Source of the DNA: Candidatus Uhrbacteria bacterium RIFCSPHIGHO2_02_FULL_46_47
GTDB taxonomy: Bacteria > Patescibacteriota > Patescibacteriia > GWA2-47-26
NCBI GenBank assembly: GCA_001790815.1
Contig: MGDU01000023.1
Location: 1-56,921, forward strand
DNA length: 56,921 nucleotides
Direction of reading: 5' to 3'
Below, in pieces: positions 13,486 through 53,011 of the stretch. Every line of letters starts with the position of its first letter. Position 1 is the stretch's first letter. Made by a program: the position numbers and the translations under genes. Under the pieces are notes generated by a model. It was given only the letters and a program-made list of their open reading frames with translations. It was not told the origin of the DNA and did not search any database.

Positions 13486-13527
13486 AAACAAAAAGTTCCA
13501 TACTTGGAACTATGGAACTTTTTGTTT
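13486..13527. promoter_or_regulatory. Palindrome T, downstream copy (17-8-17)
   Basis: AAACAAAAAGTTCCATA-CTTGGAAC-TATGGAACTTTTTGTTT. Contains the stop of the TrpR-like gene; 36-bp core identical to 14221-14256. Confidence 0.85.
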
Positions 13528-14142
13528 GACTTTGCCAAGTTGCATTTCTTTTTCAAGTTGCTGCGGTTTGCGGGGGCTGGTACGTTCCACGCGAAATAGT
13601 GCTTCAAGATAGCGAAACACTTCGCGTTTGCCTTTCCCGGATCCACGCAAAATCTTCAGGGTCTCCAGCATTCGCTTCCGTTGACGGTTATTCGCCGCGC
13701 GCGCAATTTCCTCAAGAATACCTTGCGGCCAGAAATAAAGCGGATAGCGGCGTTTCAGGTGTGCCCAACTTCCCCACATCTCACCAGCATGAGCAGGTGG
13801 CTGCCAAAGTGGCACAGCCATGTCCTCCTTGGCAAGACCACGTGCCATAACCATCCGCAAACCTTCCCCGGCTTGCTGCAACCATAAATTCACGCGCGCG
13901 ATAGTTTGCTGACTCACCTTGAGTTCTTGCCGAATCTGTTCGTACTTTTTGCCTTTGAGTAGTTGCTTTGCGATCTGCAGCCGTTTTGCTACCATGCGCA
14001 GCTCTGGCTCTGATAGTAAATCACCAAGCACTCTGGCCGACTCCTTAAGATTTTTGACCATCACCATGGATTGACAGAGTTCGAGCAACACCCTTTGCTG
14101 TGCTTCTTTTTCAAGTTTTTGCCGGGGAGTAAATTTTGCCAT
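13510..14142 (-). CDS. TrpR-like (YerC/YecD family) DNA-binding protein with C-terminal extension
   Basis: LGDLLSEPELRMVAKRLQIAKQLLKGKKYEQIRQELKVSQQTIARVN helix-turn-helix. Confidence 0.85.
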   Translation of the reverse strand: MAKFTPRQKLEKEAQQRVLLELCQSMVMVKNLKESARVLGDLLSEPELRMVAKRLQIAKQLLKGKKYEQIRQELKVSQQTIARVNLWLQQAGEGLRMVMARGLAKEDMAVPLWQPPAHAGEMWGSWAHLKRRYPLYFWPQGILEEIARAANNRQRKRMLETLKILRGSGKGKREVFRYLEALFRVERTSPRKPQQLEKEMQLGKVKQKVP

Positions 14143-14163: not shown

Positions 14164-14223
14164 TCACGTTATTGACGTTTTCACGTTATTGACAAGTATA
14201 CCATGCACTTCGGTTTTGAGCAA
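14164..14223 (-). promoter_or_regulatory. Promoter TTGCTC-N17-TATACT with downstream 13-bp direct repeats
   Basis: -10 at 14200-14195 and -35 at 14223-14218. TCACGTTATTGAC at 14164-14176 and 14181-14193. Confidence 0.55.
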
Positions 14224-14256
14224 AAAGTTCCATACTTGGAACTATGGAACTTTTTG
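14221..14256. promoter_or_regulatory. Palindrome T, upstream copy
   Basis: CAAAAAGTTCCATACTTGGAACTATGGAACTTTTTG, overlapping the predicted -35. Confidence 0.85.
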
Positions 14257-14302: not shown

Positions 14303-15070
14303 TTAAATGTGCTCCAACCAACGTGAGATAACACTCTTCAACTCTTCCAAATGCTCATTGGCGCGGAGGGTGTGTGGCGCTCCGGAAATGAGGTGGAGCT
14401 CTTTAGGGCCGGGCAGAGCTTCATACAGAATCTGTTGATGCTCAGGCGGTGTGGAATCATCATACTCGCCCACAATTAAAAGCACCAGCATGGTAAGTTT
14501 ATGAACTTCTGGCATCAGATCATATCTTAGCCGATCTTCCATATGCGACCATGGTAGACGTTTTACTTTTCCGGTTGATTTACTGATTTCTTCACGCCAC
14601 CCTGTTTCTTTCCATTTTCGCCACTCTTCATGCTTTTCATGCCCTTCCATACTCAACGCGCCGGACACCACCGTGGAAATCGGTGCTAGGGCTTTCACTT
14701 TTTCAGGATGTCGCTCCGCATATAATGCTATACAAAGTCCGCCTAAACTATGGCCTACAAGTACAAATGTCTCCTGATACCACGGCTGTGTACGCGCCCA
14801 GGCAATAACATCCTCCAAATCTTCATAGTAATTTGTGGTTGTGGCTAATTTATAATTTCCGTCACTTTCTCCAAAAGTATTGGTAGTATCAAAACGCACT
14901 GCGGTGTAGCCGTACTCTAAAAATGTCTCAGCCATTGCTTGTACATGTGGCTGCTCCTTAAATCCTCCCAGATCATGCATGATAATTGCCAACCCTTTGT
15001 GCGGCGTGGTTTCTTCCACAATTACCACCATTTTCTGCCCTTTGCGATTTTGAATAAATAATTTTTGCAT
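14303..15070 (-). CDS. Alpha/beta hydrolase
   Basis: GHSLGG nucleophile elbow, GEYDDSTP, GAPH. Confidence 0.9.
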   Translation of the reverse strand: MQKLFIQNRKGQKMVVIVEETTPHKGLAIIMHDLGGFKEQPHVQAMAETFLEYGYTAVRFDTTNTFGESDGNYKLATTTNYYEDLEDVIAWARTQPWYQETFVLVGHSLGGLCIALYAERHPEKVKALAPISTVVSGALSMEGHEKHEEWRKWKETGWREEISKSTGKVKRLPWSHMEDRLRYDLMPEVHKLTMLVLLIVGEYDDSTPPEHQQILYEALPGPKELHLISGAPHTLRANEHLEELKSVISRWLEHI

Positions 15071-15077
15071 ATACTTC

Positions 15078-15109
15078 TTAGTCTCCTAGTCGTGCGACTA
15101 AGAGACTAA
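15078..15109. promoter_or_regulatory. Palindrome R, copy downstream of arsR-like gene (15-2-15)
   Basis: TTAGTCTCCTAGTCG-TG-CGACTAAGAGACTAA, one mismatch. Confidence 0.8.
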
Positions 15110-15122
15110 CGCTACTCTGACT

Positions 15123-15386
15123 TTATTTTTTGAAATGTTTAAGCAACGACTGTAAAATCGGGTGCTGACGGTTGAGCGTGCACCATATCCAAAGCGAGGA
15201 CTGTTTGCGGCATATAAAATCACACTCTACTAATTTCTGAATATGCTTGGAGGTGCTTTTCAAGGATAACCCGATTCGTTTTGCAACGCGGTTTATTGGC
15301 AACGGCTCATGTTTGGCAAGTTCTTGCAAAATGCGCAACCGCCGCTCATTCGCCAACGCTTTGAGACATTTGGTCAATTCTTTCAT
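15123..15386 (-). CDS. ArsR/SmtB family transcriptional regulator
   Basis: LKALANERRLRILQEL...IAKRIGLSLKSTSKHIQKL winged HTH. Confidence 0.9.
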   Translation of the reverse strand: MKELTKCLKALANERRLRILQELAKHEPLPINRVAKRIGLSLKSTSKHIQKLVECDFICRKQSSLWIWCTLNRQHPILQSLLKHFKK

Positions 15387-15430
15387 ATGATGATGTAAAT
15401 AATACTACATTCTCGCATCCCTCATGATAA

Positions 15431-15489
15431 CATATGCCCAGCCACTCTCCTAGTCGCACGACTAGGAGAGTGGCACGACTAGGAGAGTG
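15431..15489. promoter_or_regulatory. Palindrome R (16-2-16) within a 45-bp direct repeat, plus duplicated half-site
   Basis: GCCACTCTCCTAGTCG-CA-CGACTAGGAGAGTGGC (15441-15474). 15431-15475 identical to 16235-16279; extra ACGACTAGGAGAGTG at 15475-15489. Confidence 0.88.
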
Positions 15490-15496
15490 ATAAATT

Positions 15497-16237
15497 TTAT
15501 GAGTCCCAATAAATCTGTCCAGTTCTATAAGCTTCCATATCGTCCGCCACTGTTGCAAACAGTGGCGTTGGCAAATTATTTAAATCATACCAATCCCATC
15601 CCACACATTTATCCGGCTCTAATACCTGTGGATTGCCGCTTTCCCAATCTACCGAAAGGCTGACATGCACATAGTGCTTTGGCGCATATGCTTTCATATT
15701 TAGCAAGCGTAAAAAGCGTATATTTTTTATTGCAATTCCAGTTTCTTCCTTTACTTCTCGTTTTGCGCAATCTGCGAATGATTCCATATAATCAAGATGT
15801 CCGCCAGGCCAAGCATACTCCCCATCCCCGTGCGAGCTTTTGCGCTTGCCAAGCAAAACTTTACCGTCTTTCCAAATCATCACTCCAATCCCTACCCGTG
15901 GCCGCGTATACGGATGATTGGCTGGCAATGTCGTCACTTCTAGTTCTGTAATAATCCGCTTTTCAAATTTACCACGCTCGTTTGCTTTGTGATCTTTTAT
16001 TTTTGCAATCGCCTGCGAAACCCATTTTCTATAATTGCAAATCGCATCTATTACCTCCAATACATCTGCCATTTCTTCTTGGTTTTCAGCTTCCAAAAAT
16101 TCCGCCACTTCTTCCTGCAATTTTTCCTTTAATTTCTGCTCATACTCCGCATCACTGGCAATATGCGTTACCAACACCTCACCTTTCTCCTTAATAATCT
16201 CCGGTATTTTATCCCGCACGAGTTTAGAATATTTCAT
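15497..16237 (-). CDS. Fusion of all-alpha NTP pyrophosphohydrolase (MazG/HisE-like) and Nudix hydrolase
   Basis: N: KLVRDKIPEII...KLQEEVAEF...EEMADVLEVI. C: PGGHLDYMESFADCAKREVKEETG Nudix box. Start 16237. Confidence 0.85.
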   Translation of the reverse strand: MKYSKLVRDKIPEIIKEKGEVLVTHIASDAEYEQKLKEKLQEEVAEFLEAENQEEMADVLEVIDAICNYRKWVSQAIAKIKDHKANERGKFEKRIITELEVTTLPANHPYTRPRVGIGVMIWKDGKVLLGKRKSSHGDGEYAWPGGHLDYMESFADCAKREVKEETGIAIKNIRFLRLLNMKAYAPKHYVHVSLSVDWESGNPQVLEPDKCVGWDWYDLNNLPTPLFATVADDMEAYRTGQIYWDS

Positions 16238-16279
16238 ATGCCCAGCCACTCTCCTAGTCGCACGACTAGGAGAGTGGCA
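16235..16279. promoter_or_regulatory. Palindrome R, third copy (45-bp direct repeat including the start codon)
   Basis: CATATGCCCAGCCACTCTCCTAGTCGCACGACTAGGAGAGTGGCA. Confidence 0.88.
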
Positions 16280-16326
16280 TATTTTATTTTAAAATATCGT
16301 CGCTGTGTTTCATGCTTTGATTATGG

Positions 16327-42615: not shown

Positions 42616-44156
42616 TTGTTTCTACTTCTCAATTTCCTATGATATGACACGGCAAATCTATGTGCCTCATCGCGCACGCGAAGAAGCAAATCCTTGTAGT
42701 TTTCTACGATTCGAGCAAGCTCCGGATTATTTTTTTCAAATATCGGACGGTCCTGTTTTCGTTTAAACCCCTTAGCAATGCCAATAATGGGAATATTAGG
42801 GAAGCTGAGCTTCCGTGAGCCACGGAAGCTCAGCTTCCGCATATCATCAATCACCTCCTGTGCCGCATTCACCTGTCCCCATCCCCCATCAATGACAAGC
42901 AAATCTGGAATTTTCCAGATTTGCGAATTATGAATCTGGAATAATGAATCATGATTTCTCAATTCCCTAATTCCTAATTCATGATTCCTAATTCGGCGAA
43001 ATCTTCTCTGTAGGATTTCGCGCATCATCGCCACATCATTGATTCCTGGTACGGTCTTGATTCTAAATTTACGATACTCGCTTTTCTTGGGCTCACCATC
43101 CTCAAATACTACCATTGACCCTACTGCTGATGTCCCACTGATGCCTGCCTTGCCGGCAGGCAGGTTAGAAATATCATATCCTTCAATACGCCCAAACACA
43201 TTTATTGCCTGAGCCGGTCGTTGGCCCTTCGACTTCGCTTCGCTTCGCTCAGGGATTAAAGTGTCACGAGTCAACACGGCAACGTCACGAATATGCTCCA
43301 GCGCAAACAATTTCCGTTTTAGGGCTTCGGCTTCTTCAAAATTTTCTAACTTTGCTTCATTTTGCATTTTTAATTTTACATTTTTAATTACTCTCGCCTT
43401 TTTACCTTCAAGCATCAAAATGACATTCCTTATATTTTTCATGTACTCCTTGCGTGTGACTGCGCCAATACAAACTCCGGGACATCTACCAATATGATAA
43501 TCAAAACAAGGACGAGGATGTAGTATGTAGGACGTAGTATGTAGTGGTTTGCAAGTTGACCACGGAAACCATTTGCGCATCAAATCCAATGCCGCGCGAA
43601 TTGCGGATGCGGAGGTGTACGGCCCAAAAATCCGCAAAAATATCTGCGGACGATTATGTGCGGCCGCATCAAATTGTCCGCGTTGGTTTTTTTGTAGTTT
43701 AAGCTCATTACCGCGAGTAAGCATCACCTTTGGCCAGTGTTCTTTGGTAATTAGCACATACAAAAATGATTTATCATCTTTCTCGCGCACATTATATCGT
43801 GGCTGATATTTTTTAATCAGGTTTGCCTCCAGTATCAATGCCTCAATCACGCTGTCTGTCACCTGATAATCAACCTGCCACACTTCATCAATCATCTCCT
43901 CAATCGTCCTACCCATTCTGCGATTCGCGCGAATCGCAGAATGACTTTTGTCAGTACCTTTCCAATAAGAAGTTACCCGCGACTTCAAATTCGTCGCTTT
44001 GCCGATATAAATCACCTTTCCCTTTTTATCCCTAAATAAATACACCCCGGATTTGGTGGGTAAACCCTCACCCTCCCCTCTCCCTAAGGGAGAGGGTGGC
44101 CGCAGGCCGGGTGAGGGGGTTCGCCGTTTAATTTTGATTATCTTTGGAATTGACAT
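42597..44156 (-). CDS. uvrC: Excinuclease UvrC (no C-terminal HhH) with at least six repeat inserts
   Basis: GVYLF...YIGKATNLKSRV GIY-YIG, Cys cluster, IEGYDISN, DLLVIDGG, RVRDEAHRFA. Confidence 0.95.
   Translation of the reverse strand: MSIPKIIKIKRRTPSPGLRPPSPLGRGEGEGLPTKSGVYLFRDKKGKVIYIGKATNLKSRVTSYWKGTDKSHSAIRANRRMGRTIEEMIDEVWQVDYQVTDSVIEALILEANLIKKYQPRYNVREKDDKSFLYVLITKEHWPKVMLTRGNELKLQKNQRGQFDAAAHNRPQIFLRIFGPYTSASAIRAALDLMRKWFPWSTCKPLHTTSYILHPRPCFDYHIGRCPGVCIGAVTRKEYMKNIRNVILMLEGKKARVIKNVKLKMQNEAKLENFEEAEALKRKLFALEHIRDVAVLTRDTLIPERSEAKSKGQRPAQAINVFGRIEGYDISNLPAGKAGISGTSAVGSMVVFEDGEPKKSEYRKFRIKTVPGINDVAMMREILQRRFRRIRNHELGIRELRNHDSLFQIHNSQIWKIPDLLVIDGGWGQVNAAQEVIDDMRKLSFRGSRKLSFPNIPIIGIAKGFKRKQDRPIFEKNNPELARIVENYKDLLLRVRDEAHRFAVSYHRKLRSRNNNPLLR
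44065..44119. repeat. Family A element in frame at the uvrC N-terminus
   Basis: Encodes PSPGLRPPSPLGRGEGEG. Confidence 0.9.
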
Positions 44157-51932: not shown

Positions 51933-53011
51933 CTCCTTTCTTTAAAGTTACTCACCCGCACTCCAATAAGGCGGATAAGCCGTTTCTTGTGGAAGTAAGG
52001 AAAAATCAGCCGCAATACTTCCCTTTTCAGTATTGTATCATCCTTACAAAACTCCGACAATGTGCGCGTGGAGGTATGAGTTTCAAAATTGTCAAACCGC
52101 ACGCGTACTGTAATGGTTCTAAAAGCGAAATGCCCCGCCTTTACTTCTTCAAATACCTCCTCTACCAGCGCAAGAATAGTTTTGGTAAGCAGGGCGTGAT
52201 CGCGCACATCATGCTCAAAGGTAGTTTCATGTCCTAGTGATTTTATTGCGTATTCCTCTTTTACCGACGACGCGTCCACTCCACAAGCAAGCCGCCCCAG
52301 ATCGCTCTCCGGATCTGAAGCAAGCCATAAGTCACGCACGGTTATAATCCCGCGTTTGGCAAGCTGTGCCTCTGTCTTTGGACCAATACCCGGCAATTTT
52401 CGCACTGCCATAGGATCTAAAAATTCTCGCACTTTTTCCAGTCGCACCACGGTCAGACCATCCGGCTTTTTAAAATCCGAGGCAATTTTGGCAATCAATT
52501 TGTTTGGGCCTATTCCAACGGAACAAGTCAGACGTTCTTGCTTTAAAATTGTCTTTTTAATCGTCCGCGCAAGTAACACTGCCTCATCCCATACTCTTTC
52601 ATGATTCATAATTCCTGATTCCTGATTCATCACTTCAATATATGCTTCATCTATGGAAGTTTGTTCAATCAATGCGGGGAAGCTGAGCTTCCGTCGCGAC
52701 GGAAGCTCAGCTTCCGCATATTGCTCGATTATTTTCATCACCCGCTCTGACACAATTCCGTACAATTTCCCATCCACCGGCAAATATGCGCACTGCGGAG
52801 ACGGACATAATTTCCAGGCCTGGGAAATTGGCAAAGCGCTCCGAATGCCGAACTTTCGCGCCGCATAACTGGCAGTGGAAACTACTCCCCTGCCGCGGCC
52901 GCCTTTGGGATCCGCACCCACCACAATAGGCCTACCTTTAAGCCCGGCGTTTTCCCGCTCCTCAATGGATGCAAAAAACGCATCCATGTCTATGTGTAAA
53001 ATAATTCTCAT
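51929..53011 (-). CDS. dinB: DNA polymerase IV with two repeat inserts
   Basis: HIDMDAFFASIE, SYAARKFGI, SIDEAY, AKIASD..KPDG, PGIG. Start 53011; the track's N-terminal extension is repeat-derived. Confidence 0.95.
   Translation of the reverse strand: MRIILHIDMDAFFASIEERENAGLKGRPIVVGADPKGGRGRGVVSTASYAARKFGIRSALPISQAWKLCPSPQCAYLPVDGKLYGIVSERVMKIIEQYAEAELPSRRKLSFPALIEQTSIDEAYIEVMNQESGIMNHERVWDEAVLLARTIKKTILKQERLTCSVGIGPNKLIAKIASDFKKPDGLTVVRLEKVREFLDPMAVRKLPGIGPKTEAQLAKRGIITVRDLWLASDPESDLGRLACGVDASSVKEEYAIKSLGHETTFEHDVRDHALLTKTILALVEEVFEEVKAGHFAFRTITVRVRFDNFETHTSTRTLSEFCKDDTILKREVLRLIFPYFHKKRLIRLIGVRVSNFKERR

Follow-up and report, generated by a model that had tools for sequence, protein, structure and literature searches.

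We analysed a 56,921-nt stretch of DNA, hereafter the window, which corresponds to positions 1-56,921 of contig MGDU01000023.1 of Candidatus Uhrbacteria bacterium RIFCSPHIGHO2_02_FULL_46_47, an ultra-small groundwater member of the candidate phyla radiation (CPR)/Patescibacteria with a 1.02-Mb genome in 27 contigs. The window carries a gene for an 87-aa ArsR-like protein (arsR) accompanied by three palindromes, which precede a Nudix fusion gene, arsR itself and an alpha/beta-fold hydrolase gene, respectively. In our estimate, with a probability of roughly 0.55, this locus is an autoregulated repressor unit of the ArsR/SmtB type with three operators in a row, in which the perfect identity of a 45-nt repeat would reflect a young copy.

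All genes of the locus lie on the minus strand, in the order Nudix-143 (a 143-aa Nudix hydrolase), palindrome A, the 246-aa Nudix fusion, an extra half-site with palindrome B, arsR, palindrome C and the hydrolase (Table 1). An exact 45-nt direct repeat (CATATGCCCAGCCACTCTCCTAGTCGCACGACTAGGAGAGTGGCA) stands on either side of the Nudix fusion gene; each copy, read on the minus strand as TGC, palindrome, TGGGCAT and ATG, includes one perfect palindrome of the 16-2-16 form. The original prediction, made from the letters alone, had described this anatomy correctly: three palindrome copies of n-2-n symmetry, identical 45-mers flanking the Nudix gene, the gene's ATG within copy A, a three-codon stub at copy B and a duplicated half-site. 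Palindrome C is a weaker copy than the other two. A search with the 22-nt core, allowing up to three mismatches, found three places (six strand matches) in the window, against 0.00 expected from 100 shuffles. The whole 1.02-Mb genome has six copies of this ArsR-type palindrome, of which five lie at gene boundaries and the sixth is in frame inside an open reading frame (ORF). Those beyond the window bracket a 72%-identical arsR paralogue, arsR-2, on contig C3 (C3:12107-12132 and C3:12500-12525) or lie inside the ORF on contig C25 (C25:28533-28558). The spacings of bracketing copies (318-395 nt) follow no regular period, and strict helical phasing was not seen.

The 87-aa protein matches the NCBIfam ArsR/SmtB model NF033788 with 56.2 bits (cut-off 55) and the Pfam families HTH_20 (35.0 versus 27) and HTH_24 (38.2 versus 21.9), falling just short of HTH_5, the arsR family (21.3 versus 22). 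Its AlphaFold2 (AF2) model (pLDDT 94.7) has the topology α1-α2-α3-α4-β1-β2-α5 and was matched by Foldseek to HlyU, NolR, CadC, SmtB, CzrA, ArsR and SqrR at TM-scores of 0.74-0.83, with PagR also among the nearest; by sequence, the nearest solved structures are NolR, PagR and HlyU. Judged by sequence and predicted structure, it is a genuine winged-helix protein of the ArsR/SmtB fold, and it resembles the non-metal members of the family. No catalytic domain is present in its Pfam profile or in the model. In an alignment of 20 subfamily members, the recognition helix S41-x-K-S-T-S-K-H-x-Q50 (SxKSTSKHxQ) and the cysteines Cys55 and Cys69 are invariant, C7 is found in 17 of the 19 sequences covering that column, and H75 and H84 are at least 90% conserved. 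The canonical metal motifs, CxC in α3 (α3N) and DxH...HxxE in α5, were not found in this alignment. Comparison with the orthologue from Hainich groundwater, considered below, gave a nonsynonymous divergence (dN) of 0.03, that is, very strong purifying selection on arsR.

The palindromes themselves point to this protein as their partner. Operators of the ArsR/SmtB family are 12-2-12 inverted repeats located at or near the transcription start (PMC8790569), and the resemblance to them proposed in the original prediction holds at the sequence level, with 16-2-16 and 15-2-15 sites around a 2-nt centre. We surveyed 30 homologue loci from 61 related genomes, comparing the 130 nt on either side of the gene. 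In 19 loci, the two flanks had an identical 14-30-nt word in common, compared to 4.9% of cross-locus pairs, and the more alike two proteins were, the more alike their half-sites (Mantel r 0.665, p <= 0.0002, falling to 0.457 when the close clade was left out). The sites of the 20 subfamily members all keep AGTCG-YR-CGACT, and the palindrome type goes with the helix: TISxH with ATTCTnACATTCTG, STSKH and ATSKH with ...TTCGC, and STSKHIQKL with AGTCG-CA-CGACT. At every locus, the two central bases read CA or TG, whichever the orientation. Furthermore, arsR-2 is bracketed by the same palindrome type, the palindrome-arsR-palindrome layout recurs in all arsR-2 orthologues found in metagenomes, and palindromes B and C are retained in the Hainich relative despite saturated synonymous sites. 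Homologues in relatives are thus typically bracketed by locus-specific palindromes that change together with the protein, and on this good, if indirect, evidence the ArsR-like protein very probably binds the palindrome, which would then be its operator. When a collection of genomes was scanned with the degenerate core, matches outside the CPR were mostly high-GC chance palindromes from Actinomycetota and similar groups.

In the regulation that we propose, the 87-aa protein would most likely bind each palindrome as a dimer, with the helix SxKSTSKHxQ reading the invariant core AGTCG-CA-CGACT, and the bound protein would block initiation or act as a roadblock to read-through at A, B and C. The Nudix fusion, arsR itself and the hydrolase would thereby be kept low until a signal releases the repressor. 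As the canonical metal sites are absent and Cys55 and Cys69 are invariant, the release may involve a thiol/redox or an unusual metal switch; the invariant cysteines, together with the Nudix, msrA, FMN reductase, PPOX-like and TspO neighbours in related loci, suggest that the signal is perhaps thiol/redox. A consensus scan placed one TAAAAT -10-like hexamer 7 nt before palindrome A and another just ahead of the half-site at B, the latter within a promoter-like site that lies in and just beyond the 3' end of the Nudix fusion gene (stop codon 15497-15499). In the leaders of arsR orthologues, an extended -10 (TGnTATGAT or TGATATAGT) follows the palindrome at a distance of about 13 nt; at this place the window has TGTTATCAT, whose TG coincides with the final two bases of the 45-mer. 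Between palindrome C or its counterparts and the next gene's ATG there are only 7-30 nt (7 nt in the window, before the hydrolase), and because the site is so near the ATG, the promoter of that gene would lie upstream of or over the site, or else the gene would be transcribed by read-through from arsR.

The origin of the 45-nt identity can be addressed by comparison with the Hainich locus (L040/L041). The original prediction viewed the 45-mers as the scar of an insertion of the Nudix gene at a single operator. The only close orthologue locus of the window's arsR (arsR-1), however, is the Hainich one, which instead displays the window's own order, Nudix fusion, palindrome, arsR and palindrome. 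The two are separated by a synonymous divergence (pS) of 0.65 for arsR and 0.73 for the fusion, values at which synonymous sites are saturated, and the encoded proteins are 96.6% (ArsR) and 62% (fusion) identical. At site B, the Hainich relative has just one palindrome and no duplicated half-site; the flank that follows (AGGTGGTGTGATATGAT...) is closer to the C3 paralogue's leader (GGTGGAGGTGTGGTATGAT...; GGTGG.GTGTG.TATGAT) than to that of the window (TGGGCATATG). The same order at saturated divergence combined with a different flank at site B indicates that the gene order is old whereas the 45-nt identity is recent, which speaks for copying between two existing sites and against the proposed insertion. 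The identity reaches 11 nt past the selected palindrome, and similarity to the Hainich sequence resumes right after the 45-mer (9/12 positions versus 5/10 inside). Most likely, the 45-nt identity represents a short non-reciprocal tract of gene conversion or template switching, plus a 17-nt slippage duplication. Site A is the likely donor and site B the recipient, because the ATG is functional at A and meaningless at B; the tract would have carried the palindrome, its 7-nt leader and the ATG from A onto B, accompanied by the 17-nt slippage.

Several observations weigh against the autoregulatory interpretation or parts of it. The promoter calls are consensus matches only, with five found versus 3.0 expected, and a search of sequencing runs found the stretch in no RNA run. 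The Mantel co-variation is inflated by co-inheritance of the gene and its flanks. In one genome (G054), the copy sits downstream of arsR, ahead of a terminator and a convergent gene; further copies lie between convergent genes or in frame inside genes, where there is no promoter; and a 100%-complete member of the family has the palindrome, fused to a sister type, but no ArsR-like gene. Finally, the Hainich contig ends inside the fusion gene, so that the likely direction of copying, from A to B, is based on the ATG being functional at A and on a weak alignment of the flanks.

The solo copies also allow another explanation, possible although in our view unlikely, according to which the palindrome is a protein-partnered selfish element, akin to REP/REPIN-RAYT or to the Rickettsia palindromic elements, with the bracketed winged helix-turn-helix (wHTH) protein as its partner and regulation being incidental. 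The C25 copy lies in frame in a gene for the N-domain of a PEP-utilising enzyme, where it encodes SPSRTTRR beside two other palindrome types, and the same palindrome is in frame in murC (HSPSRTTRRV) of Parcubacteria GW2011_GWA2_47_26. This murC position is occupied by three different 30-nt n-2-n palindromes in three genera of the family, namely, the window's own (Table 1), the ArsR type and a CATCCTTACAAACT type, such that the symmetry persists although the peptide differs. Outside the family, murC of relatives lacks the palindrome segment and has, in its place, about 30 aa that are missing from the three genomes. A related palindrome is in frame in uvrC; its type, with about eight copies in the genome, is the cognate of another wHTH paralogue, bracketed at C6:26104 and C6:26453. 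The recurrence of composite arrays of two or three palindrome types, the complete genome with palindrome but without regulator, and the sharing of the type across classes despite only six copies here are also in line with selfish spread. Against it stand the low copy number and the lack of a catalytic domain in the 87-aa protein, the placement of all three copies of the locus precisely at gene starts beside -10-like elements, and the dN of 0.03, as expected of a working regulator. The selfish interpretation is, in any case, compatible with the sites being operators.

It is distinctly doubtful that the palindromes are recombination sites of a cassette system, between which genes are inserted, excised or replaced and whose two junctions are the 45-mers, for instance, through a single crossover of a circle carrying the gene and one 45-mer or through replacement by a foreign allele using palindrome homology. 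Exactly one gene does lie between perfect direct repeats, and the genes beside the palindromes of arsR-2 orthologues vary among relatives: the gene that follows arsR-2 may be methyltransferase-like (459 aa), PPOX-like, DnaJ or a gene of 215 aa; in one relative, the upstream palindrome and arsR are separated by a 376-aa gene; and one locus (L076) reads palindrome-arsR-palindrome-gene-palindrome. Similarly, at site C, the palindrome, its leader (AAGT.TATATG) and the ATG are conserved between the window (15060-15109) and the Hainich contig (L041:400-480) despite saturated synonymous divergence (dS), and are followed by unrelated genes, the hydrolase gene in the window and, in the relative, one that is absent from the window's genome. 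At both B and C, the palindrome of one locus is the exact, in-place reverse complement of that of the other, a local rearrangement in which the flip swaps the CA/TG centre and the arm mismatch while the orientation of arsR is kept. Moreover, another organism in these samples has identical 31-nt palindromes. Because the Nudix fusion already lies upstream of arsR at saturated dS, however, a 45-mer that is still perfect cannot be explained by the arrival of this gene. There is no recombinase in the gene table of the neighbourhood, the genome's one tyrosine recombinase (PF00589) being on contig C1, and no deletion or circle joints were found in k=31 contigs, which cannot resolve a 45-nt repeat. 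In these contigs, the depth of the gene equals that of its flanks; its GC content is inside the local range and the repeat, unlike in known cassettes, is 5' of the gene and includes its ATG.

The notion of recombination at the operator, as originally put forward, is thus not supported for insertion of the Nudix fusion and survives in another form, since relatives do exchange genes at the palindromes, with the palindrome, leader and ATG as the breakpoint. The variable neighbours, the shared site C with its ATG and the flips of B and C together indicate that, as far as sequence comparison goes, the palindromes behave as points of local rearrangement and exchange. One may go further and picture a protein-partnered palindromic element, the sites of which are copied as units of palindrome, leader and ATG, flip, and mark the breakpoints of gene swaps, with solo copies in essential genes; we consider this broader picture tentative at best. 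Downstream of arsR-2, an ATG 7 nt past the palindrome (C3:12527-12556) opens a nine-codon mini-ORF, the stop of which overlaps the start of the 459-aa methyltransferase-like gene, an arrangement comparable to the three-codon stub after palindrome B. The mini-ORF and the stub are possibly leader peptides or a coincidence.

An action at the RNA level, with the palindromes forming mRNA hairpins (terminators or processing and stabilising structures) independently of the ArsR-like protein, appears very unlikely. If transcribed, the palindromes would form stable hairpins (-30.5, -44 and -21 kcal/mol; z -4.9 to -6.7), copy A scores as an intrinsic terminator on the plus strand and some copies are at 3' ends between convergent genes. 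Yet on the minus strand, which carries all genes of the locus, the stem is not followed by a U-tract, and the Rfam search matched no family, yielding only a chance miRNA match (E 0.94), so that a known RNA family was rejected. Nor would hairpins account for each wHTH paralogue having its own palindrome type or for the constant CA/TG centre in either orientation.

Practically no weight can be given to an assembly duplication or chimera, which the original prediction had named as a risk: although short repeats can mislead assemblers and Logan k=31 unitigs do break at the 45-mer, five contigs of other assemblers from ENA and JGI samples, including megahit k=141 contigs spanning the repeat, match the region at 100% identity, the exact Nudix fusion protein is indexed on more than 20 contigs, the stretch (98% of its words) is present in at least nine DNA runs from six studies, and, in Logan k=31 data, the 45-mer unitig is deeper than its flanks in 4/4 runs (by a factor of about two in X6 and X7 and by a smaller one in X1 and X5) with the gene between the repeats at single-copy depth.

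Table 1. Features of the arsR locus and related palindromes in the window, given in the order in which they are read on the minus strand, followed by the copies in murC and uvrC.
Feature	Position	Strand	Basis and remarks
Nudix-143, upstream neighbour, MutT-like Nudix hydrolase, 143 aa	16327..16758	-	Pfam NUDIX 85 bits; NCBIfam MutT-like matches below cut-off
Promoter-like ATGAAA-16-TAAAAT	16286..16313	-	consensus scan only, 9/12; no evidence of function
45-nt repeat copy A; its ATG is the Nudix fusion start codon (at 16237)	16235..16279	-	sequence comparison
Palindrome A, perfect 16-2-16, GCCACTCTCCTAGTCG CA CGACTAGGAGAGTGGC, proposed ArsR operator	16245..16278	.	palindrome search; hairpin -30.5 kcal/mol if transcribed
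Nudix fusion gene, 246 aa (MKYSKLVRD...)	15497..16237	-	Pfam NUDIX 70 bits
Promoter-like TGGACA-16-TAAAAT	15494..15521	-	consensus scan, 10/12
Extra half-site, CACTCTCCTAGTCGTGC (minus strand) duplicated in tandem over 17 nt	15476..15492	.	sequence comparison; Hainich relative without copy
45-nt repeat copy B, upstream of arsR	15431..15475	-	ATG at 15433 opens only ATG-TTA-TCA-TGA (15422-15433)
Palindrome B, perfect 16-2-16, proposed autoregulatory operator	15441..15474	.	palindrome search
Extended -10-like TGTTATCAT (inferred)	15424..15432	-	orthologous-leader alignment
arsR-like gene, 87 aa, ArsR/SmtB winged helix-turn-helix	15123..15386	-	NF033788; AF2; Foldseek
Palindrome C, 15-2-15, one arm mismatch, TTAGTCTCCTAGTCG TG CGACTAAGAGACTAA	15078..15109	.	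conserved but flipped in L040/L041
Alpha/beta-fold hydrolase, 255 aa, proposed third target	14303..15070	-	Pfam Hydrolase_4 / Abhydrolase_1
murC palindrome CATTCCAACATTCT CA AGAATGTGAGAATG, 30 nt	23680-23709	-	in frame, HSNILKNVRM
uvrC palindrome CATTCTGCGATTCG CG CGAATCGCAGAATG	43914-43943	-	in frame, HSAIRANRRM

By predicted fold, by sequence and by the form of its sites, the locus classifies as a probable ArsR/SmtB autorepressor unit, comparable to SmtB-smtA, ZiaR, CzrA and AzuR and to the non-metal HlyU, NolR and PagR. It shares with these systems the fold and sequence family and the placing of an n-2-n site beside the promoter or transcription start of both the regulator gene and adjacent genes (PMC8790569); the occurrence of one or two repeats per promoter in the known systems also fits the extra half-site. 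By contrast, the arms of the palindromes at this locus are longer and perfect (16-2-16), the site is present on both sides of the regulator gene and again before a third gene, the protein lacks the α3N/α5 metal site and has the invariant Cys55/Cys69 pair, and palindrome copies also occur within coding sequences and in genomes that lack the regulator.

Three other systems are similar in part. As in REP/REPIN elements and their RAYT genes (TnpA-REP, REPtrons), a gene is bracketed by cognate palindromes, types are paralogue-specific and solo copies are, to some extent, dispersed; however, the bracketed gene here encodes an 87-aa non-catalytic wHTH protein rather than a Y1 HUH transposase, there are only six copies, some in frame, and RAYT-like genes exist separately in the genome, with palindromes of a GGAAGCTGAGCTTCC type on both sides of one of them. 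Three such Y1_Tnp genes were found (on contigs C10, C25 and C27), and the two long palindromes flanking the C10:3033-3272 copy form a REPtron-like arrangement. As in integrons, palindromic sites punctuate single genes in one orientation and the content of the slots varies in relatives. Yet attC sites are imperfect palindromes, whereas those of the locus are perfect and without extrahelical bases; there is no integrase and no GTTRRRY core (the 45-mer contains no GTT), and the repeat is 5' of the ORF and includes the start codon. We accordingly rejected an integron/attC identity, the gene table having no intI near the locus and the sites no attC architecture. With the Rickettsia palindromic elements, the palindromes share in-frame translated copies in conserved genes (murC, uvrC and the PEP-utilising enzyme), but measure about 30 nt instead of 100-150 nt, have a predicted dedicated DNA-binding partner and keep their symmetry even where the encoded peptide differs. 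In our literature searches, neither such palindromes nor the wider layout were found described for CPR/Patescibacteria.

The genes flanking the sites have features of their own. The stop codon of Nudix-143 is 48 nt ahead of palindrome A, and the -10 hexamer of the promoter-like site in between ends 7 nt ahead of that palindrome. In the Nudix fusion, the C-terminal Nudix domain (PF00293, 70.2 bits versus a cut-off of 21.1) is about 70% identical to stand-alone Nudix proteins of the CPR, and the N-terminal ~105 aa form an all-alpha domain weakly similar to PRA-PH/MazG. The latter match (PF01503) is below the cut-off (14.4 bits versus 21.3, E 0.05), the domain has no sequence match in the PDB, and no NCBIfam equivalog reached its cut-off for the fusion. 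The earlier description of the gene as pyrophosphatase-Nudix is hence borne out for its Nudix part, whereas the pyrophosphatase part falls below the cut-off and depends on the weak similarity and on homologous domains in two relatives. In an index of 5.8 billion proteins, the MazG-like-Nudix order was found only in this clade, and the only two other full-length fusion relatives (P0021 and P0026; loci L077 and L078) have the reverse order, Nudix then MazG-like; on account of that reversal, they are considered independent fusions on sequence grounds. Their loci have unrelated neighbours and no palindrome. A foreign origin of the fusion was also considered on the basis of composition; its GC content is 42%, with a genome value of 46.6% and a span of 40-51% among neighbouring genes, which leaves no signal. 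In one JGI contig (3300025323), the hydrolase gene has an 89-nt deletion (window ~14501-14589; L038:4571) that leaves two ORFs, and the hydrolase may be dispensable in that population.

Other palindromes populate the genome. On C25 (C25:28460-28561), three stand in a row and in frame, of the CCTCCCCTTA, CGTTCTGCGATTCG and ArsR types; the pair of the second type, ACGATA and the ArsR type recurs in an Uhrbacteria genome (L055/L115), and a similar pairing, absent from the genome of the window, is found in another organism of the same metagenomes (assembly loose ends). The N-terminus of uvrC also has proline/glycine-rich residues encoded by repeats. Next to the locus, a TrpR-like gene (13510-14142, minus strand) is bracketed by a 20-2-20 palindrome (AAACAAAAAGTTCCATACTT GG AACTATGGAACTTTTTGTTT) at 13486-13527 and 14221-14256, one copy of which overlaps the stop codon; the bracket layout is the same with a different fold. 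A tandem direct repeat of TCACGTTATTGAC (two copies, spacing 17; window 14164-14193) lies between the TrpR-like start and the upstream palindrome. There are also about 15 long palindromes of the form GGAAGCTGAGCTTCCGT...ACGGAAGCTCAGCTTCC, including window 42800-42838 and 52676-52717 and C10:2976-3566.

The genomes of CPR/Patescibacteria are tiny and, to our knowledge, almost nothing is known about gene regulation in these bacteria. The locus offers a concrete predicted regulator-operator pair, with a site of 34 nt, three proposed target genes and, in the protein, an invariant recognition helix and two invariant cysteines. How such sites may evolve is likewise illustrated here, with an operator, its leader and a start codon apparently copied onto a neighbouring operator, with flips of sites and with exchange of neighbouring genes. 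If the wider pattern holds, paralogue-specific brackets together with in-frame copies in essential genes would represent a way to organise and spread regulatory sites that we did not find in the literature; and should the palindromes indeed mark the breakpoints of gene swaps, they would constitute an integrase-free, operator-delimited gene-slot system in CPR bacteria.

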